From a virus: DNA of 42,278 bases. The translations under genes were made by a program, and so were the position numbers. Shown here piece by piece: positions 3,440 through 40,049 of the stretch. Position 1 is the stretch's first letter; every line of letters starts with the position of its first letter. The notes beneath the pieces are model-generated. The model was not told the origin of the DNA. It ran no database searches and saw only the letters and a list, made by a program, of their open reading frames with translations. Where the stretch lies: IMG/VR virus record IMGVR_UViG_3300045988_021594; one strand, 5' to 3'.

Positions 3440-3854
3440 ATTTACCTCTACCACAATCCAGACCGTGGCAGCCGGTCAGAATCTTCCCTTGACCGAAACA
3501 GCTATCAAGGGGTCAAACTGCATCAACCACCGAGCAGGTGCTGGCAATGTGACGCTGCGTGGGATTACGAACCAGTGCAAGGCACTGTTCAAAGTGAGTT
3601 TTGGCGGCAACATCGCCATCCCTACCGGTGGCACTGTGGGCGCTATCTCTGTGGCGCTGGCTGTCGGCGGTGAGTCGCTGACCAGTGCGACAGCCATTGT
3701 CACCCCGGCGGCAGTCGAAAATTACTTCAATGTTTTCATGGCCGCGTTCATCGAGGTGCCGCGCGGCTGCTGCGTGACCGTGGCGGTTAAAAACACCAGT
3801 ACGCAGGCAGTCAGCATTGCAAACAGCAATTTGATTGTTGAGCGGGTAGCATAA
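3432..3854 (+). CDS. Hypothetical protein, possibly a C1q/TNF-like (BclA C-terminal-domain-like) jelly roll
   Basis: Overlaps the upstream stop. The alternating beta-strand pattern (VTLRG, FKVSFGGNI, ISVALAVGGE, VTVAVKN, LIVERV) resembles BclA-CTD proteins; this is judged by eye only. Confidence 0.6.
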   Translation: MAEFTSTTIQTVAAGQNLPLTETAIKGSNCINHRAGAGNVTLRGITNQCKALFKVSFGGNIAIPTGGTVGAISVALAVGGESLTSATAIVTPAAVENYFNVFMAAFIEVPRGCCVTVAVKNTSTQAVSIANSNLIVERVA

Positions 3855-3870
3855 GAAAGGAGATAAAGTC

Positions 3871-4272
3871 ATGCTGGATAAACTGAATCATCTGAAAGAC
3901 GAAATGTGCGAAGAGCTCATGGATCTGACCGACAAAAAGAACCGATCCCCGGGCGATGTTGAGATGATCGGCGAAATCGTGGACATCATTCTGGACATCC
4001 ACCGCATCGAGGACTACTGCGAGGGCGGCGAGTACAGCCGTGCAGGCGAGTGGGAAGCTGACATGCGCGGATCTTTCAGCCGCGATGCCGGAAACGGTTA
4101 CAACCGGGGCAACAGCTATGCCAACCGAGGCCGTCATTATGTGCGCGGGCACTACTCCCGCACGGATGGCCGTGAGCGTATAATCTCTGACATCGAGGAC
4201 ATGATGCAGGACGCCACCGGCGCAGAGCGCGATGCCTGCAAGCGGGCCGCTGACATCTTGCGCAACGCATAA
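3871..4272 (+). CDS. Hypothetical protein with an R/G/N/Y-rich central segment
   Basis: AAAGGAGA SD. Confidence 0.65.
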   Translation: MLDKLNHLKDEMCEELMDLTDKKNRSPGDVEMIGEIVDIILDIHRIEDYCEGGEYSRAGEWEADMRGSFSRDAGNGYNRGNSYANRGRHYVRGHYSRTDGRERIISDIEDMMQDATGAERDACKRAADILRNA

Positions 4273-4867: not shown

Positions 4868-4897
4868 ATAATCTAACAAACAATCTAACAAATCAAT
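4868..4897 (+). repeat. attP arm repeat, copy 2 (ATAATCTAACAAACAATCTAACAAATCAAT)
   Basis: Direct repeat of 4675-4703; it overlaps the integrase stop codon. Confidence 0.6.
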
Positions 4898-6026
4898 ACT
4901 TCATTTTTTGCATTTCCCGCAACAGATAAGCCGGGTCATTGTGGGAGACGTACTTGTTGGCTGTGGTGGAGAAATTTTTGTGACCCAAGATTGCCTGCAC
5001 GGCGGTCTTTTCCAGGCCGCACTCCACCATCTTGCTGCTGGCTGTATGGCGCAGCGTGTGCGGATGCACGCCCTCTATATGGCATTCCTGCATCAACGCC
5101 CGGAACTTTGTAGCCACGTTACGCTTGTCCAGCTTTGTGCCGGCTTTGGACGGTATCAGCCATTCACACCCGCTGTCCATCATCCAAAAGGCAATGATCT
5201 TGTAAATGGGCTCAAGGATGGGGATGATGCGGTTCTTGCCCGCTTCTGTCTTTTCACCGCCCTGCATGTACCGCTCTTTCAGGTGCACGTCCTCGCAGCG
5301 CATGGAAAGCAGCTCGTCAATGCGCATACCGGTATAAAGCAGCACCATTGCGATTTGCGCCGTCTGCCCAAACTTTGGGTCGTCTTGTCGGCCGCTGATC
5401 CGCTCGATCTCTTGGGCGGTCAGGGTGCGTTCTTCCTTGCCTGTAGCCGCTGGGAGCTGCAAGAGCATAGCATAGTTTTTGTTTATGATGTCCTGCGCCA
5501 TAGCCCACTCGCAGATCTGGCTGAAAAGTGTGCGCTGCTTTTCGCAGGAGCTGCGTGAAAGGCCCTTTTCCACCATTGCGTCAATGACCTGTTGATAATC
5601 TGCCGCTTTCAAGTCCCGCAATTGTCGGTCGTATAGCGGCGCAGCCTTTGCATAGGCCAGCTCGTACCCCTTTTTCATGTCAGTACTGAGCTTGTCAAAC
5701 TTGGGCTGCACTTTCCATTGGGCGTAGGCATCCGCAAAAGTGCATTTCAGACGCGCTGCGGGGGTGTTCTGGGCGTTGTAAGCGTCCAGTGCTTGTACTG
5801 CTTCGCCCGGCGTCGCAAACGTCCCCAGAACGTCTCGCTTGGCTGTCAGGGCCACATACGGCTTTGACCTCGTCCCGATCAGTTTATAAACGCTGCCGCT
5901 GCCCTTTGGGCGGCGGCGTTTTTTTCTTTGCTGCGGGGCGGCTTCCGGCTGCTTCTTCCCGCACCACGGACAAAAAGAAGCACCATCCGGGATCTCTTTC
6001 CGGCAGCATGGTCTCACGCATTTCAT
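4893..6026 (-). CDS. int: Tyrosine recombinase (phage integrase) with an N-terminal Cys4 zinc ribbon
   Basis: C-terminal HPHTLRHT, LGH and NKYVSH motifs match the R-H-R-Y catalytic set. The N-terminus reads CVRPCC...CPWCG. It lies adjacent to attP. Confidence 0.9.
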   Translation of the reverse strand: MKCVRPCCRKEIPDGASFCPWCGKKQPEAAPQQRKKRRRPKGSGSVYKLIGTRSKPYVALTAKRDVLGTFATPGEAVQALDAYNAQNTPAARLKCTFADAYAQWKVQPKFDKLSTDMKKGYELAYAKAAPLYDRQLRDLKAADYQQVIDAMVEKGLSRSSCEKQRTLFSQICEWAMAQDIINKNYAMLLQLPAATGKEERTLTAQEIERISGRQDDPKFGQTAQIAMVLLYTGMRIDELLSMRCEDVHLKERYMQGGEKTEAGKNRIIPILEPIYKIIAFWMMDSGCEWLIPSKAGTKLDKRNVATKFRALMQECHIEGVHPHTLRHTASSKMVECGLEKTAVQAILGHKNFSTTANKYVSHNDPAYLLREMQKMKY

Positions 6027-6029
6027 GGC

Positions 6030-6617
6030 TTACTCCTTTTTCTGCCCGATATATCCGAATGCGCCATTTTCAGCAGCGGCTCTTCCGGCCTTGTAGTTGA
6101 TCTTCAAGTCGTCAATGGGAGGGTGCGGAGCGTCCGGGCATGGGTCTAATCCCATGCTCTGGGCAAAGTTGTATTGGTCGATGATTGTTCCGCATACGCT
6201 GACCCGGTTATTGAGCGGGCAGTGCAAGTTGGCTGCCACCTCGGAGATCACCGCGGGCGGGCTGCTGCCGTGACTGCCTTTCAGTATGAAGAGAAGCAGC
6301 CTTTTTGTCAGCGGCGGCAGTTTTACCACGATACGGCGCAACTCCGCGTTTAGCTCATCGTCGGCCTTTCCGTCATCCGGCACTTTGTACAGATCCGGGT
6401 GGGTCATCTCCATAAACACCGTGATGGGCGACACCCCACACGCCGTGCACCAGTCCATGATCTCGTCACTGTCCGGGCTGGTGCAGCCTTTTTCCCAGCT
6501 CTGCACGGTGCGTTCTCCTTTTTCGATGCGCCTTGCGATCTCCACTTGGCTCAGGCCGGCAGACACCCGTGCTTTTGCAATCGCTTTCCCGATTTGGCTC
6601 GCCGTAAAATAACTCAT
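6030..6617 (-). CDS. XRE-family HTH regulator co-transcribed with the integrase
   Basis: GGGGG SD precedes M33 of track ORF 6030-6713. HTH reads LSQVEIARRIEKGERTVQSWEKG. The C-terminal domain shows no S24 peptidase motifs that I can see. Confidence 0.8.
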   Translation of the reverse strand: MSYFTASQIGKAIAKARVSAGLSQVEIARRIEKGERTVQSWEKGCTSPDSDEIMDWCTACGVSPITVFMEMTHPDLYKVPDDGKADDELNAELRRIVVKLPPLTKRLLLFILKGSHGSSPPAVISEVAANLHCPLNNRVSVCGTIIDQYNFAQSMGLDPCPDAPHPPIDDLKINYKAGRAAAENGAFGYIGQKKE

Positions 6618-6655
6618 ACTTTCGCCCCCATAATTCCGGTGTGTTTTTAACAAAA

Positions 6656-6729
6656 AATGGCGCAGAAAAAATCCGCGCCATTCGACAAATTTTATCCGTA
6701 TTTTATTTTCCAATGGCGCATGGTAGAAT
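6656..6729. promoter_or_regulatory. Divergent control region: AATGGCGC inverted repeat plus a half-site abutting an extended -10
   Basis: AATGGCGC lies at 6656-6663, GCGCCATT at 6675-6682 and AATGGCGC at 6712-6719. TGgTAGAAT lies at 6721-6729. Confidence 0.45.
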
Positions 6730-6889: not shown

Positions 6890-7099
6890 ATGAAAGACAA
6901 GATGAAGCACTTCAGCACCTATATCCGCGCCGCTTTGGCCTGCTATGTGAGCATGACGCCAGATCAGCAAGCCCTCGCTATGATGTACGCGGCCCACAAG
7001 ATCGCCGCGCTTGACAAGCTGCACGCTGCCGCCGGTGAGCCCGGCGGGGCTGTAGCCGCTGACCTGCTGCAAAATTTGCAAAATCCTTGCAACCGCTAA
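6890..7099 (+). CDS. Hypothetical protein (69 aa)
   Basis: GGGAGGA SD; follows the previous ORF by 3 nt. Confidence 0.5.
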   Translation: MKDKMKHFSTYIRAALACYVSMTPDQQALAMMYAAHKIAALDKLHAAAGEPGGAVAADLLQNLQNPCNR

Positions 7100-7215
7100 T
7101 AGCAACGTGCATATTTTGCGCGTATTCAGCGTAAAACGTGCAAAAGTCAGCGTAAATTTTAACGCTTCAACGCAAATGAATAAATTTTTAACTTGTTTTG
7201 CGCAATTTTTTACGC

Positions 7216-7245
7216 TTGACGCATCACAACAAGCAGTTGTATAAT
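7216..7245 (+). promoter_or_regulatory. Near-consensus sigma-A promoter firing antisense into the 3' end of 7262-7978
   Basis: TTGACG (7216-7221), 18 nt, TATAAT (7240-7245), with TG immediately upstream. No SD or start codon lies downstream. Confidence 0.5.
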
Positions 7246-7261: not shown

Positions 7262-7978
7262 TCACAGGCCAAGCAACTGAGCTTTCTTTGCGTTGTACTC
7301 CGCTTCCGTAATGGCCCCCATATCCAGCAACCGCTTAAACTTCAAAAGTTCATCGGCGGAGCTTGGGGCAGCCGGAGCGGTGCCCCGCGGCTGTTCTGGA
7401 GAGCCTTTGCAACTCTTGAGAAACGCAGTCATTCCGCCAGGATAAACCGTTGTCAGCAAGTTGCTTTCGCCTAGTGGAAGCTCAAAGTGGATAGACACGC
7501 TCTCTTTACTGCGACCTTTGCGGGTCTCTGTTTTAGCGGTGGCGGCGCCCACGATCGCACCCACAGACCCGGCAACGGCTGCACCGATCACGGCACGGCC
7601 AATACCGCCCTTTGTCTCTGTCACCGTCAGATCGTCAGGCGCGTCAGATTCATAACCGGCGACTTCATCAAAGCTGTAGATCATGCGAGGACCTTTATCA
7701 CCGCCGCGATGCCCAAAGCAAAACAGGCGGTTTTCCTTGTCGATGGACACAAAAAGCGCATCTCCATCATAGATGGAGTCGGTCTCCTTGAATGCCTTGC
7801 GGCGGTCTTCCAATGTAACCCAGTAGTCCGCAAGGGCGGCTGTCGGTTGCTTTGCTGCCCGGATGCCCAATTTTGAAAAGAAAAAGTTACTGCATCCGGC
7901 GCAGATCAAGCCGTCAGCGCTCTTCTCTCTGTTCAGAAAGCCCAGCTTGCCGCCGCAGACCGGACAGGTATTTGCCAT
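7262..7978 (-). CDS. Zinc-ribbon / glycine-zipper / SHOCT-domain protein
   Basis: N-terminal CPVCG...CAGC; hydrophobic Gly-rich segment GGIGRAVIGAAVAGSVGAIVGAATA; C-terminal ELLKFKRLLDMGAITEAEYNAKKAQLL, which is SHOCT-like. Confidence 0.8.
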   Translation of the reverse strand: MANTCPVCGGKLGFLNREKSADGLICAGCSNFFFSKLGIRAAKQPTAALADYWVTLEDRRKAFKETDSIYDGDALFVSIDKENRLFCFGHRGGDKGPRMIYSFDEVAGYESDAPDDLTVTETKGGIGRAVIGAAVAGSVGAIVGAATAKTETRKGRSKESVSIHFELPLGESNLLTTVYPGGMTAFLKSCKGSPEQPRGTAPAAPSSADELLKFKRLLDMGAITEAEYNAKKAQLLGL

Positions 7979-7980
7979 GA

Positions 7981-8574
7981 TTACACCTCACCTTTTGATT
8001 TTATAAAATTCTGCATTTTGTCAAAACGCAAAATCACACAACCCATCATCGAATTTGTAATTCGTTCATCCGAAAAGGAATCTTTCCACTTTTGAATAGA
8101 GTTTGCTTTTCCATTTTGAGTTTTCAAAGTCAGGAGTTTTTCCAGCTGCTTGATATAAGAATTTTCGACAACAACCTCAAAAAGGTCAAAGAGAGAAAAC
8201 TTCATCATGTCATAAAGCTCAGTAGGGCTAAAATCAAATTTGAACCCCATCCTCTCATATTTCTTGAGCTCATCGAGCGTATCAAGAATCATATCATATC
8301 TTGAAAACAGAACATCGATATCTGAAGTCCTCTCTATCACTAGAAAAGAGTCCAAAACTTTCCGTATCCGTTCTGGTATTGTTTCTTCTGGGAAATCCAC
8401 AAATTCTTTCCCAGTGTCAGGATCGATTAAAACAACGGGATCTGGTGATTTGCTCCAATTAGCGTTCGGGCGTACAAAACGCAACGGCTCTTGGGCTTCA
8501 GGATCGTCTTTTTTCTTGAAGACCGCATTGATAACCCGCGTGATATTTTTCCGAAATCCAACATTCCATATCAC
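7981..8574 (-). CDS. Hypothetical acidic protein in an AT-rich, probably foreign, gene
   Basis: GAGGTGG SD lies 5 nt before the GTG (V13 of track ORF 7981-8610). Its stop is 2 nt before the next start. GC is visibly lower than in the flanks. Confidence 0.65.
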   Translation of the reverse strand: MIWNVGFRKNITRVINAVFKKKDDPEAQEPLRFVRPNANWSKSPDPVVLIDPDTGKEFVDFPEETIPERIRKVLDSFLVIERTSDIDVLFSRYDMILDTLDELKKYERMGFKFDFSPTELYDMMKFSLFDLFEVVVENSYIKQLEKLLTLKTQNGKANSIQKWKDSFSDERITNSMMGCVILRFDKMQNFIKSKGEV

Positions 8575-8592
8575 GGGAACCACCTCACATAT

Positions 8593-8620
8593 ACAAAAAT
8601 AGGCAGCCAACCCGCTGCCG
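8593..8620 (-). terminator. Minus-strand hairpin plus T-tract just upstream of the cassette
   Basis: GGCAGC (8602-8607) pairs with GCTGCC (8614-8619). On the minus strand it is followed by TATTTTTGT. Confidence 0.45.
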
Positions 8621-8663
8621 AAAAACTAAGTTATCAAGGAAAATGCCAAAGGAGGAAAATAAA

Positions 8664-8816
8664 GTGCAAGAGACTAGCACAATGTTTGCAAAATGTGATA
8701 CAATGGAAGAAAAAGAAAAGTGCCGCCTCAAAGCTTTATTTTCTTCTTTGTCAGCACAGGAAAAACAAGAGGTGCTTTCCTATGCGGAAAGCCTGCTCAA
8801 CAGCAGAAAGGAGTAG
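8664..8816 (+). CDS. Possible small ORF (50 aa)
   Basis: Strong AAAGGAGGAAAA SD lies 5 nt before the GTG. Below the length cutoff of the ORF track. Confidence 0.35.
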   Translation: MQETSTMFAKCDTMEEKEKCRLKALFSSLSAQEKQEVLSYAESLLNSRKE

Positions 8817-8820
8817 ATCC

Positions 8821-9270
8821 ATGGATAAGTACGAGATTGAACTGGGCCGGTACAAAACCAGAATTTTTGCTCTTCTGGCAACGGAAGCGTCTTGCCTGCC
8901 CGGAATCAAAAGCGAAGAGTGCGCAAATTGCGACCACAGGTGCTCTCTTGAAATCGGGTGTTACTGCTTCAATTACGGATGCGGAAATGGTAAGACCACG
9001 GAAGAGCTGCACGAAGCATTTGACCGCGTTTGTGATGCCCTTAAAATTTCTGACCGAAGATGGACACCAGCAAATCCAATGCGGCCTGAAGTATTTGATT
9101 CTCCCGATCTGCTCGAAGTTCTTGAAGATAGGCTTCTCCAGCTAGCGGAAGAGAATAAATGTACTCGCTTGGAAGAAAACCACCCACCCCGTCAGGAATG
9201 TACTCTTTGCGGCGCTCATCAATCAGACCGCGGCTCTTCAAATTCTGAATGTACCGATTCTGGCCGTTGA
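8821..9270 (+). CDS. Possible Cys-rich ORF (149 aa) that overlaps the convergent gene 9041-9382 by 230 nt
   Basis: AAAGGAG SD lies 7 nt before the ATG (M111 of track ORF 8491-9270). The N-terminal ~75 aa look protein-like; the C-terminal part is doubtful. Confidence 0.3.
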   Translation: MDKYEIELGRYKTRIFALLATEASCLPGIKSEECANCDHRCSLEIGCYCFNYGCGNGKTTEELHEAFDRVCDALKISDRRWTPANPMRPEVFDSPDLLEVLEDRLLQLAEENKCTRLEENHPPRQECTLCGAHQSDRGSSNSECTDSGR

Positions 9271-9382
9271 GACTGAAATCCTCGCCGGAAATGAGGCAGA
9301 CTTCGTGCTGGTTCATTTTCCCGTTGTGCTTCTCCATATATAATAGGAGAGCCAGGCTCTTTTTGTCCAAAAACTCAGCCAT
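9041..9382 (-). CDS. Small winged-helix-like protein (YjcQ/MarR-like pattern)
   Basis: ATGGCTGA start/stop overlap with the upstream XRE gene. The pattern LLLYMEKHNG...YIQNLKSRGLI...YSLPLAGEAYLQE is wHTH-like. Confidence 0.65.
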   Translation of the reverse strand: MAEFLDKKSLALLLYMEKHNGKMNQHEVCLISGEDFSLNGQNRYIQNLKSRGLIDERRKEYIPDGVGGFLPSEYIYSLPLAGEAYLQELRADRENQILQAALDLLVSIFGQKF

Positions 9383-9740
9383 TGGAGTTTTCCTTTCTTG
9401 AAGCAACCTTAAATTTTGCATATTGCAGCACGTCAGCAAGCTCCTGTTCGGTCAACTGATCGAGCACGGCGTTGAATGCTGCATCCAGTCCACTCTCTTC
9501 ACTGGGAGTGGGCTTTTCTTTTTGCTCGTTTTCGCCGGTGAGCTCTTTAGAATCAACTCCAAAGTAGGTTGCGATTTTTTCAACGGTTGCTTTTCGCGGG
9601 GCGCTTCCATTTGCCCATCTTGTTACAGAAGAGCGCTGAAGCCCCATATCCTCTGCTACGGCAGATGGCGACTTGCCAATGCTATTGCAAAGGCGAACGA
9701 AGTTCAAATAGAACAAAACACCACCCCCGTTTTTGTGCAA
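9375..9740 (-). CDS. CI-like XRE-family repressor (start uncertain: TTG at 9740 or TTG at 9716)
   Basis: HTH reads SPSAVAEDMGLQRSSVTRWANG. It is divergent from the Cro-like gene across an operator-rich region. Confidence 0.8.
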   Translation of the reverse strand: MHKNGGGVLFYLNFVRLCNSIGKSPSAVAEDMGLQRSSVTRWANGSAPRKATVEKIATYFGVDSKELTGENEQKEKPTPSEESGLDAAFNAVLDQLTEQELADVLQYAKFKVASRKENSNG

Positions 9741-9832: not shown

Positions 9833-10312
9833 CGAAAAACGCCCGAACAGAAATCGGGACGTCCGAATGCTATTGGTAACCTTGCAATTACATAATAGCA
9901 CGTTTTGTGAACATTTGCAACAGTATTTTGACACGGCGACAAGAAAAAATCTGCCTGTGGTCGCTTCACAGACAGACTTTTCACCGATTTGTCACCAGAA
10001 CGCACCTGCACCCCGGCGGTAATGCAAACATGCGCGTTTGCACGTCTTTTGCGCCATGCGCGGCGCAAAAGTAACGCCCGGGCTGCAAAAACAACTTGCA
10101 GGGCTATGGGTACGCCGCTTCCTTTGGCGGGTCGGCACCGCCTTGTAAGCCCTAGCGCTTCACGCACTTGCTCGTGTCTGGAACTGGCTGGCTCAAAAGT
10201 TTGGTCATCGAAATCACCTGCCTTTTGAATCAGTTTAACTAGGAGCCTTGAACAGTATAGAAAATCGGTGCGCCGTTGTCAATTTATTAACACATAACAG
10301 GGAGGTGGAAGA
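9833..10312 (+). promoter_or_regulatory. Long ORF-less structured 5' leader (or candidate ncRNA) before the Cro-like gene
   Basis: Hairpins lie at 9843-9858, 9868-9900, 10023-10042, 10046-10071 and 10126-10142, with an enclosing GGGCT/AGCCC pair at 10101-10152. No credible ORF is present. Confidence 0.4.
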
Positions 10313-29466: not shown

Positions 29467-29542
29467 GCCGCTTTCGCACAACTGGTAGTGCTCCCGGCTC
29501 ATAACCGGGCAGTTGCAGGTTCGAGCCCTGCAAGCGGCACCA
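29467..29542 (+). tRNA. tRNA with anticodon CAT (elongator Met, or Ile2 if modified with lysidine)
   Basis: Full cloverleaf folded by hand: acceptor GCCGCTT/AAGCGGC, D-arm GCAC-AACTGGTA-GTGC, anticodon arm CCCGG-CTCATAA-CCGGG, variable loop CAGTT, T-arm GCAGG-TTCGAGC-CCTGC, then A-CCA. Length is 76 nt. Confidence 0.9.
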
Positions 29543-38369: not shown

Positions 38370-40049
38370 ATGGCTACGAATCTTACTGACATCATCAAAA
38401 AAGTACGCACTGCCTTGCGAGGTGAAGAGGTGCGCGGCAGCATCGCCGACGGGCTGGAGTTTTGCGGGCATATTTCCGAGAATGCCAAAGCAGATATGGA
38501 GGCAAGTGCCGCGGCTACCAAAGAGCAGCTGTCTAAAGACATCGACGCCAAAGCCGCAGAGACACTCAAGACCATCCCGGAGAGCTATACGGAGCTTGAT
38601 GGGAGTGTGAAGCAGCTAAAGGAAGATTTAGAAGATGTCAATTCAATAATTGATTATAATAAAACTGCCATGTCCTATGGATACAACTCATACGTTGACG
38701 TTGGTGAATGGGAAAATGGTATGATATATAATGGTGACAATATAGACAGAATCTACGCAATCAGAACAAAAGAAAAAGTGTCCATTGATGAGAACATGAT
38801 GGTCATGGATTTAGACGGAGGCAATTTAGTATGGCAGACTGTTCAGTATACTCCTGATGGGACTTTTGAAAAAAACAGCACAGTAAATAGCAGCGGAGGT
38901 AAAGTGTTTGAGTTTGACAAGTCAAAACTTTACAGATTCATTATTCGTTCAACAGATGGAGCTACACCAATCATAAACATCAAAAAAGCGAAAAATACTA
39001 TTAAATTTTTCTATGAGAATGATTTGTTTGACAAATATGCGAAAAGCGATGTTGTGAATCGTGACATAGAAAACCTTAAAAAATTAAAGGAAGACATCGG
39101 TGAATACTCTGCTGTTTACAAGCGACAGCTGGAAAAAAGAATTGAACAAATCAATGACAAGTCAAAAGAAATTGGCACGAATGGGGATATGTTTATTTTT
39201 ATCACCGATATGCACAACCCTTACGCACCATTTGTGGATAAACCTATTTCTACAAGACAAAATTTAAGGGCAATTCCATTAATAAAAAAGGTTTTAGAGT
39301 GTACACCTTGCAATAAAGTATTTGTTGGTGGAGATTTGGCATTTTCGTCACTGAGCGCCAACAATACAAGAGAATTGGCTTATAATCAATGCAGAACTGT
39401 GGTCAACAGGTTCAACGAATTGATTGATGTACCAGTATATTTTATAAAAGGAAATCATGACGATAATGGATATACTGATGACACTTATTATATGGACAAT
39501 CAGCTGTATCCATTGTTTAACGCATGTCTTGAAAAAGATAAAGATGTAACATGGGGAGACAGAAACAAACTCTATTGGTATGTAGATAATCCTATCGCTA
39601 AAATACGCTATATCTGTCTGAATACCTTTCCTCGAAAAAGTGATGGAACGCAAAGTACCGGTATGGAAAATGACCAAAAAATATGGTTAAAAGATGTCGC
39701 ATTAAATGTACCAAATACCGATTGGGTGGTTGTTATTTTAGCACACAAGATTCACTGGAATGTTCAAGAAATTGCAAAAGAAAAAATGGATAGTGGTGTT
39801 ACGGTTGCGTTTTGTCTAGGCGGACATGAACACAGAGATACATTTATCCCTTATACTGATCTGGAAAATGGAAAAGGTGTAAATTTTGTGCAGACAACTT
39901 GTGATGCTTGCTATGCAGATGATGGCTATGGCCGTACAGTTGGAACAGACTTTGAAAACGCTTTTGATGTTGTGACGATTGATAAGACGCAAAGAAAAAT
40001 AGTTATGTATCGCATTGGGGCTGGAGATATCAGAAGCTTCACCTATTAA
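38370..40049 (+). CDS. Chimeric tail fibre/receptor-binding protein with a C-terminal calcineurin-like metallophosphoesterase domain
   Basis: Metallophosphoesterase motifs appear in the canonical order: TDMHN, GGDL, GNHDD, AHKIH, GGHEH. GC drops sharply from about 38620 to the stop. Confidence 0.8.
   Translation: MATNLTDIIKKVRTALRGEEVRGSIADGLEFCGHISENAKADMEASAAATKEQLSKDIDAKAAETLKTIPESYTELDGSVKQLKEDLEDVNSIIDYNKTAMSYGYNSYVDVGEWENGMIYNGDNIDRIYAIRTKEKVSIDENMMVMDLDGGNLVWQTVQYTPDGTFEKNSTVNSSGGKVFEFDKSKLYRFIIRSTDGATPIINIKKAKNTIKFFYENDLFDKYAKSDVVNRDIENLKKLKEDIGEYSAVYKRQLEKRIEQINDKSKEIGTNGDMFIFITDMHNPYAPFVDKPISTRQNLRAIPLIKKVLECTPCNKVFVGGDLAFSSLSANNTRELAYNQCRTVVNRFNELIDVPVYFIKGNHDDNGYTDDTYYMDNQLYPLFNACLEKDKDVTWGDRNKLYWYVDNPIAKIRYICLNTFPRKSDGTQSTGMENDQKIWLKDVALNVPNTDWVVVILAHKIHWNVQEIAKEKMDSGVTVAFCLGGHEHRDTFIPYTDLENGKGVNFVQTTCDACYADDGYGRTVGTDFENAFDVVTIDKTQRKIVMYRIGAGDIRSFTY

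Follow-up and report, generated by a model that had tools for sequence, protein, structure and literature searches.

The cargo slot considered here occupies positions 7262-8574 of a 42,278-nt stretch of viral DNA (IMG/VR record IMGVR_UViG_3300045988_021594; the whole stretch is referred to as the window). Two genes, geneA and geneB, together fill it on the minus strand, flanked by a CI-like repressor operon and by XRE/integrase genes. According to the best-supported reading, geneA and geneB are two independent morons and not one system, geneB being the regular resident of the slot and geneA a later add-on of low G+C content (GC). The original prediction, made from the letters of the window, had taken them for a low-GC two-gene cassette in which a sensor is paired with a membrane-perturbing effector. 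The coordinates of the two minus-strand genes, their 2-nt gap and their position between int/XRE and the CI-like repressor were confirmed. The description as a low-GC cassette holds for geneA (GC 0.382) but not for geneB (0.554), which is close to the window as a whole (0.535). Rather than revealing a new two-gene defense system, the analysis delimits, with sharp boundaries, a cargo slot shared by temperate phages of a very abundant human-gut group. The genes and signals concerned are as follows.

7981-8574, minus strand: geneA, 197 aa, GTG start assigned from the open reading frame (ORF) and the spacing to the Shine-Dalgarno sequence (SD)
7262-7978, minus strand: geneB, 238 aa, ATG at 7978 preceded by GGTGAGGTG
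8581-8588, minus strand: GTGAGGTG, SD at the end of the leader and left junction of the geneA insert
7984-7991, minus strand: second GTGAGGTG, within the last geneA codons, right junction of the insert and SD of geneB
8592-8619, minus strand: terminator- or attenuator-like hairpin GGCAGC-6 nt-GCTGCC, then TATTTTTGT, immediately before the SD
8620-9040, minus strand: conserved leader of about 420 nt, between a repressor-operon gene (9041-9382) and the cargo slot
7216-7245, plus strand: promoter-like element TTGACG-18-TATAAT, matching at 11 of 12 positions, antisense into the slot

Among IMG/VR loci, geneB was frequently found without geneA. Close homologues of geneB could be assessed in 78 loci, with geneA directly upstream in 31, a distant geneA-like gene in 3 and neither in 44. 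For geneA, 41 loci were assessable; geneB came next in 36 of them, always with the 2-nt gap that is formed here by the TAA of geneA (7983-7981), the letters 'tc' and the ATG of geneB. The other five carried different cargo behind geneA, again after 2 nt, which was either a protein with a zinc ribbon, a transmembrane (TM) segment and Ltp repeats (PF07553, E = 2.3e-27, in locus L092) or a 246-aa signal-peptide protein. An unbiased census of the slot, for which the exact leader pattern was searched in IMG/VR, yielded 59 loci: geneB stood alone in 41, the Ltp-type protein of the same zinc ribbon-TM-Ltp layout was present in 13, geneA plus geneB in 3 and a 335-aa lipoprotein in 1, and the remaining locus was truncated. 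An obligate two-gene system, with neither family ever alone, is at odds with these counts of solo geneB (44/78 and 41/59).

The two genes also assorted independently. An identical geneB protein (P0023) occurred without geneA in L129 and with geneA in L130, and sequence identities were decoupled, reaching 72% for geneA with 94% for geneB in one case and 93% with 77% in another. GeneA-like variants of 240, 249 and 427 aa were located upstream of geneB, and another of 407 aa occurred by itself, with the repressor on one side and the integrase on the other. The 19 loci of a distant geneB clade (36-39% identity) invariably carried it as a single gene, placed between a repressor (LexA-like or helix-turn-helix [HTH]) and an integrase. 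Homologues of geneB formed more than 302 clusters, compared with 22 clusters of close homologues (69-95% identity) for geneA. These solo occurrences indicate that either gene can function, or can at any rate be maintained, when its neighbor is missing. Co-occurrence of the two was confined to one lineage of closely related, recombining gut phages and to one slot. The original prediction had named co-occurrence of the two families in other genomes as a point on which it could fail, and on that point it largely does.

The boundaries of the geneA insert could be located by comparison with relatives that lack it. In these, the same leader reads ...tgtatatGTGAGGTGcttattATG directly into geneB, so that '...cggcagc-loop-ggctgcctatttttgtatatGTGAGGTG' joins 'cttattATG' of geneB. 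In this phage, the same leader leads into geneA, and the second GTGAGGTG restores the SD of geneB. Two relatives (L016 and L061) kept a remnant of the 3' end of geneA, with geneA itself absent. GeneA would have been placed by recombination at the duplicated SD. That this AT-rich gene was acquired horizontally, as had been suggested, agrees with its GC (GC3 0.399; about -2.7 standard deviations among 594-nt windows) and with the GTGAGGTG repeats that bound the insert. It is one of only two islands of less than 40% GC in the 42-kb window.

At the other end, about 45 nt past the geneB stop are conserved, and both hexamers of the 7216-7245 element (-10 and -35) fall within them. The -10 motif directly follows the stop of the last cargo, be it geneB, the Ltp-type gene or the gene of the 246-aa protein. 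Because the motif trails whichever cargo is last, it is a backbone feature rather than a part of geneB. The motif of the predicted antisense promoter is present and conserved in relatives, its hexamers more so than the spacer, but it is not part of a cassette. Given the alternative cargos in the census, the region is a moron exchange slot, and the proposed prophage moron position is borne out by this exchange of cargo within the lysogeny module.

Several minor observations were made around the slot. The -10 of the antisense element is held by a 21-nt motif, ATTATACAACTGcTTGtTGTG, which marks the right edge; in a distant phage clade (L156/L159/L161), an approximately 90% identical motif precedes the geneB homologue by about 80-100 nt, on the side of the repressor and downstream of it. 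Antisense promoter, operator and recombination boundary are candidate roles for it. Downstream of the slot, the convergent intergenic region 7100-7215, partly conserved in some relatives, contains the direct repeat TCAGCGTAAA (7126 and 7147), and the palindromic pair GCAAAATTTGCA/TGCATATTTTGC is found at 7069-7119; the repeat and the pair may be operator-like sites. In an unrelated phage context (L005, 6763-7197), geneB with 89% identity follows a 76-aa gene that has a weak, sub-threshold NikA-like match, and the GTGAGGTGTAATCATG junction is also present after this unrelated gene. Farther downstream in L005, Bro-N and a HepT-like/NTase_sub_bind (HEPN-type toxin) gene follow geneB, and the arrangement resembles a small accessory or defense cluster.

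A scan of the minus strand from 8575 to 9040 returned no consensus promoter for the slot. Since the hairpin also stands just before the SD, we infer that transcription starting at the repressor promoter reads through into the slot and that the hairpin serves as attenuator or stabilizer. This hairpin, correctly anticipated as a terminator-like element upstream of the genes, runs from 8619 to 8592 on the minus strand; its stem is invariant in relatives and its loop varies. The leftward lysogeny operon would proceed from the CI-like repressor through the 113-aa gene and the leader to the cargo slot at its promoter-distal end, beyond which lie the backbone promoter-like motif, two small plus-strand ORFs, the XRE gene and the integrase gene. 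In L142, which belongs to the distant clade, 46 nt separate the LexA-like repressor gene from the start of the geneB homologue, and no terminator is predicted in this gap.

The leader itself may encode divergent small genes, which would alter this model of transcription. A small ORF at 8664-8816 on the plus strand is preceded by a strong SD (AAGGAGG-8 nt-GTG), and its DUF2281/VapB-like match stays under the threshold (E = 0.0013). At 8824-9040, variation among 13 relatives was focused on the third positions of a plus-strand frame (0.005/0.001/0.038). The equivalent stretch carries no gene call in L129, and the codon-position signal of the leader was ambiguous. A match of the leader to Rfam SQ2397 (23 bits versus a cut-off of 100) was dismissed as chance. 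Downstream of the geneB homologue in L142, we noticed a perfect TTGACA-17-TATAAT promoter (3854-3882, minus strand) and a terminator-like hairpin (3779-3800, minus strand), on the strand opposite to the homologue. Together they predict a convergent RNA of about 80 nt, which resembles 3'-overlapping antisense regulators.

Three modules were recognized in the geneB product.

7883-7969, minus strand: Cys4 zinc ribbon, DUF4428 (PF14471), aa 4-32, 29.7 bits versus a cut-off of 27.8
7535-7609, minus strand: glycine-zipper hydrophobic segment, aa 124-148, inserted in a predicted PH-like domain
7271-7354, minus strand: SHOCT (PF09851), aa 209-236, 35.4 bits versus a cut-off of 27

The ribbon, the zipper and the SHOCT-like helix pair had all been proposed for geneB, and all three were recovered. 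In an alignment that included a 39%-identical homologue, C5, C8, C26 and C29 of the ribbon and G132/A136/G140/G144 of the zipper were invariant; the SHOCT helix pair was near-invariant at 39% overall identity. PF27000 (PH_gly_zipper) is a precomputed database annotation on every close homologue (86-94% identity), and aa 2-154 matched PHROG 888, a phage family with no assigned function (E = 1.2e-32). Neither an enzymatic domain nor a signal peptide was found in geneB. A phmmer search of the PDB produced chance matches only, and a scan of GTDB genomes gave a single match, which covered SHOCT only. PF07553 (Ltp) matched neither geneA nor geneB, and sub-cut-off matches of geneB to GvpG and a primase ribbon were disregarded.

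The hydrophobic stretch of geneB comprises about 20 residues (Kyte-Doolittle maximum of 1.86 at aa 129), with TVTETK before it and KTETRKGRSK after it. Positive charges come after the segment and the zinc ribbon before it. If geneB truly spanned the membrane, the ribbon would be exposed outside the cell, which argues for re-entrant or peripheral association from the cytoplasmic side. We predict from its sequence that geneB sits at the cytoplasmic face of the membrane in such a mode, with no bona fide TM topology, and that it is probably oligomeric. SHOCT domains are common on oligomeric, membrane-proximal proteins (PMC3581485, PMC11237479), and SHOCT-like domains have been proposed as inner-leaflet membrane anchors (PMC11237479). 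Bacterial PH domains assemble as oligomeric rings (PMC2817789). In homologues of SNIPE (PD-lambda-1), a membrane-bound anti-phage nuclease that acts at the site of DNA injection, N-terminal PH or DUF4428 domains take the place of the TM anchor (bioRxiv 10.1101/2025.11.03.685801), which supports a membrane-localizing role for the N-terminal half of geneB. Three of these papers (PMC11237479, PMC2817789 and bioRxiv 10.1101/2025.11.03.685801) fit the cytoplasmic-face placement. With PHb- and SHOCT-domain proteins, geneB shares the SHOCT tail and, judging by the Pfam name (PH_gly_zipper), would share the fold family; those proteins have no assigned anti-phage role. Only the geneB family has the DUF4428 ribbon and the insertion of a glycine zipper.

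For geneA, in which the original prediction had recognized no motif, one domain was delimited.

7984-8382, minus strand: helical domain of geneA, aa 65-197, with the motifs TxNPxTFFSRYD and LKTxxGKxN in relatives

The geneA ORF is open from TTG 8610. GTG 8574 sits 6 nt past GAGGTG and corresponds to the start chosen by several gene callers in homologues. The product had been called acidic, which is true to a mild degree (pI 5.46), the excess of D+E (33) over K+R (31) being weak. It consists of a basic N-terminal helix, a low-confidence linker and the C-terminal helical domain. GeneA had no match in Pfam, NCBIfam, PHROGs (E ≤ 0.1) or PADLOC (E ≤ 1), and a sub-threshold match to TA_inhibitor (E = 0.065, 13.7 bits versus a cut-off of 27) was disregarded. 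An exhaustive HMMER search revealed a core of about 100 aa (aa ~66-169) common to 46 representative proteins. AlphaFold2 (AF2) with a shallow alignment of 14 sequences gave a predicted local distance difference test score (pLDDT) of 44, and this model was discarded; with 43 sequences the mean pLDDT was 85 and exceeded 90 over aa ~70-190. Six helices were modeled, at aa 65-82, 86-108, 117-126, 128-149, 153-165 and 174-195. A fold search of the PDB with this model returned nothing below E = 0.4, and a profile search of PDB sequences nothing meaningful. In BFVD, the model matched uncharacterized viral proteins and others annotated as minor capsid protein or restriction endonuclease. Of 43 relatives retrieved with geneA as the query, 36 match PHROG 7974 and 28 match PHROG 17596, neither of which has an assigned function; against PADLOC, the 43 gave chance-level matches only.

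The relatives differ in what they join to this domain. Their N-terminal elements include a hydrophobic anchor followed by K/R clusters, DUF4236, TM2 and short CxxC...CxxC ribbons, and in some of them the domain precedes TerB_N, MuF-type or tetratricopeptide repeat (TPR) modules. The anchor followed by K/R clusters places the domain in the cytoplasm. In P0186 (512 aa), the geneA-type helical domain occurs together with a CxxC ribbon and TerB_N (1.2e-16), and P0150 has two copies of the domain before a Phage_min_cap2/MuF-type C terminus; from these architectures, the domain behaves as a reusable N-terminal adaptor module. Where context was visible, the relatives occupied moron positions, one beside a CI-like repressor and one between the tail chaperone and the tape measure protein (TMP) gene of a myophage. 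The CxxC...CxxC N termini resemble the geneB ribbon by eye, an impression only, as Pfam makes no DUF4428 call on them. A protein with a TM segment, a beta-rich region and the geneA domain (P0165) was considered as a 'Rosetta stone' in which the geneA domain would be fused to a PH domain like that of geneB, but BLASTP and Pfam did not support this. The helical domain is undescribed, being absent from Pfam and without a relative in the PDB; phage morons contain it repeatedly, joined to membrane anchors, TerB_N, nuclease or MuF-type modules, and merits a family description.

As regards function, we consider it reasonably probable that the slot holds separate morons, each acting singly at the membrane for superinfection exclusion. 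In the lysogen, read-through of the repressor operon would provide for expression of both genes, and the probable site of action of both is the cytoplasmic membrane face. Each gene alone would act against superinfecting phages, and DNA entry or the moment right after it is the most likely stage of exclusion. Three parts of geneB would contact the membrane, namely its DUF4428 zinc ribbon, its SHOCT tail and a PH-like domain that would let its glycine-zipper loop enter the bilayer. GeneA would act through its six-helix domain, which in other phage proteins appears to be tethered to the inner membrane face by N-terminal anchors. The position of the locus points to a putative anti-phage function at the membrane, and by analogy an exclusion or defense role is reasonable because the same slot holds an Ltp-family gene in sister phages.

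The ltp gene of Streptococcus thermophilus phage TP-J34 belongs to the lysogeny module and is active in the prophage, where its transcription was seen; its membrane-associated product keeps DNA from being injected, a demonstrated case of superinfection exclusion (PMC3952083). Like geneB, it is a single gene between the repressor side and the integrase (PMC3952083). In sister phages, an Ltp-domain gene sits in the exact slot of geneB behind the same leader (the 13 of 59 loci mentioned above), and geneB may be a functional alternative to it. GeneB differs from Ltp in having no Ltp repeat, lipobox, signal peptide or true TM helix and in its predicted cytoplasmic location; the Ltp-type protein of the sister phages, in turn, is anchored by a zinc ribbon and a TM segment and not by a lipid. 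The alternation of a widespread DUF4428-PH_gly_zipper-SHOCT family (PHROG 888) with the proven exclusion family Ltp in one slot is a concrete lead for a new exclusion or defense protein. To our knowledge, very few exclusion or defense functions are known for gut Clostridia-type hosts. The statement that no system of this composition has been described agrees with the PADLOC check (PADLOC-DB v2), in which neither protein matched any defense model at E ≤ 1, though both families are already catalogued with function unassigned: PF27000 and PHROG 888 for geneB, PHROG 7974/17596 for relatives of geneA.

Several findings weigh against separate morons that act singly in exclusion. The regular succession of geneA and geneB (36/41) with its constant 2-nt gap, and the pairing of three divergent geneA-like variants with geneB, would be compatible with cooperation of the two where both are present. 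The hairpin with its T-run could halt read-through, and the promoter scan of the slot was empty. The topology argument for geneB is based on charge distribution and the name of a Pfam domain. The lack of PADLOC matches also belongs here, as does the fact that the Gram-positive superinfection exclusion (Sie) proteins Ltp and Sie2009 face outward with real anchors while geneB looks cytoplasmic; a shared slot need not imply a shared mechanism. Lambda RexA/RexB serves as a comparison for a pair: two genes co-transcribed with cI encode a soluble sensor and a membrane channel, the polytopic RexB, and Rex needs both.

A RexA/RexB-like, two-component defense system, in which geneA as a cytoplasmic sensor triggers geneB as a membrane-perturbing effector, would account for part of these findings. 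The SD of geneB inside geneA makes translational coupling possible across the short gap, and the three geneA-like variants (35-42% core identity) before an approximately 90%-conserved geneB resemble a diversifying specificity subunit. The likeness to rexAB extends to the place, which is next to the repressor gene on its downstream side and on its strand, and to the order of a soluble and then a membrane-active component. There is no sequence or domain similarity to RexA/RexB, and geneA and geneB assort independently. Solo geneB in most loci of both surveys, the identical geneB protein with and without geneA, geneA followed by Ltp-type or secreted cargo, the solitary 407-aa relative, the distant geneB clade that is never accompanied by a geneA partner, the decoupled identities and the restriction of all pairs to one slot of one recombining lineage leave this explanation a slim chance. 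The same frequent separation is incompatible with the obligate toxin-antidote pair expected of a toxin-antitoxin module that stabilizes the prophage, with either gene as the toxin. The tight two-gene arrangement and the weak TA_inhibitor match of geneA speak for such a module, but that match is far under its threshold and the idea is extremely improbable.

Two further explanations keep geneB independent and change what it does. GeneB could be a self-contained abortive-infection effector, a PH-ring oligomer whose zipper loops form a pore on an infection signal and depolarize the cell, with no block of DNA entry. The invariant glycine zipper is in line with this, as such motifs are generally known from channel-forming proteins; so is the formation of rings by bacterial PH domains (PMC2817789). 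The lack of a signal peptide makes a cytoplasmic sensor-effector plausible, and the conserved convergent promoter at the 3' side could damp a potentially toxic gene. That promoter trails any cargo and not geneB specifically, geneB has no similarity to pore-forming effectors in PADLOC, and a hydrophobic stretch of about 20 residues with charged flanking strands is too short for a bilayer-spanning helical hairpin, so that we regard this abortive role as rather unlikely. Alternatively, the cargo might serve lysogenic conversion or prophage housekeeping at the membrane, by modulation of envelope stress or tuning of induction or lysis, instead of acting against phages. SHOCT and zinc-ribbon modules are tied to envelope-stress (phage shock protein [PSP]) networks (PMC11237479), no defense model was matched, and the lipoprotein and the secreted protein among the other cargos have no assigned roles. 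Set against this are the best-characterized alternative cargo, which belongs to the Ltp exclusion family (PMC3952083), and the quick turnover of cargo and divergence of geneA-like genes, which we take as typical of conflict genes. A role outside phage exclusion is on balance clearly improbable.

Exclusion by separate morons is the reading that we retain for the slot. We would attach a low probability, as a speculative extension, to a modular toolkit of gut Firmicutes phages in which geneB is a new single-protein exclusion or abortive factor, a zinc-ribbon/PH ring with zipper loops in the inner leaflet, and geneA-type proteins are optional specificity or trigger adaptors for several envelope effectors (geneB, the Ltp-type protein and the secreted protein).

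As reportedly described by Rousset et al. in 2022, P2/P4-type defense hotspots have conserved flanks and exchange their cargo fast among near-identical backbones. The present slot likewise has conserved flanks and exchanged cargo. Unlike those hotspots, it forms part of a repressor operon, in a siphophage of Firmicutes, and its cargos are small membrane or envelope proteins, not known multigene systems. Prophage PLg-TB25 of L. garvieae, with the order int, SHOCT protein, 196-aa acidic protein and repressor (PMC5431838), was considered as an analogue and set aside: a tblastn search of a phage collection, in which the presence of PLg-TB25 is unconfirmed, gave no match to geneA at E ≤ 1.

The window represents an apparently complete temperate siphophage of about 42 kb from human-gut metagenomes, with terminase, portal, TMP, Prophage_tail and GH25 lysin genes, and looks like a temperate gut Firmicutes phage. 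A megablast search of its lysogeny region against cultured phages returned no match. The genes around the slot are as follows.

4893-6026, minus strand: tyrosine integrase
6030-6713, minus strand: XRE-type gene
9041-9439, minus strand: 113-132-aa gene of the repressor operon
9375-9740, minus strand: CI-like HTH gene
from 10313, plus strand: Cro-like gene and AntA/KilAC antirepressor gene

The N terminus of the integrase contains a CxxC...CxxC zinc-ribbon-like segment (Zn_Ribbon_1, E = 0.0011, sub-cut-off), and zinc ribbons also open geneB and the Ltp-type cargo. A FuFi-1 RNA (Rfam RF02986) was detected at 9945-10167 on the minus strand (E = 9.9e-14, 68.7 bits versus a gathering score of 59.6). 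The Cro-like and CI-like genes flank it and it is on the CI strand, which corresponds to the 5' region of the repressor transcript, and its placement in a phage genetic switch may inform on this orphan RNA motif.

The second low-GC island of the window is stronger (33-38% GC) and extends from 38450 to 39600 inside an ORF at 38370-40049 on the plus strand. The product is a tail-module protein of 559 aa that contains a calcineurin-like phosphoesterase domain and is encoded between the Prophage_tail gene, which it directly follows, and the GH25 lysin gene. Receptor binding or wall degradation at the tail is its probable role, and its gene has probably been exchanged horizontally. A tRNA-Met (CAT) gene was located at 29467-29542 on the plus strand, in the middle of the structural gene block.

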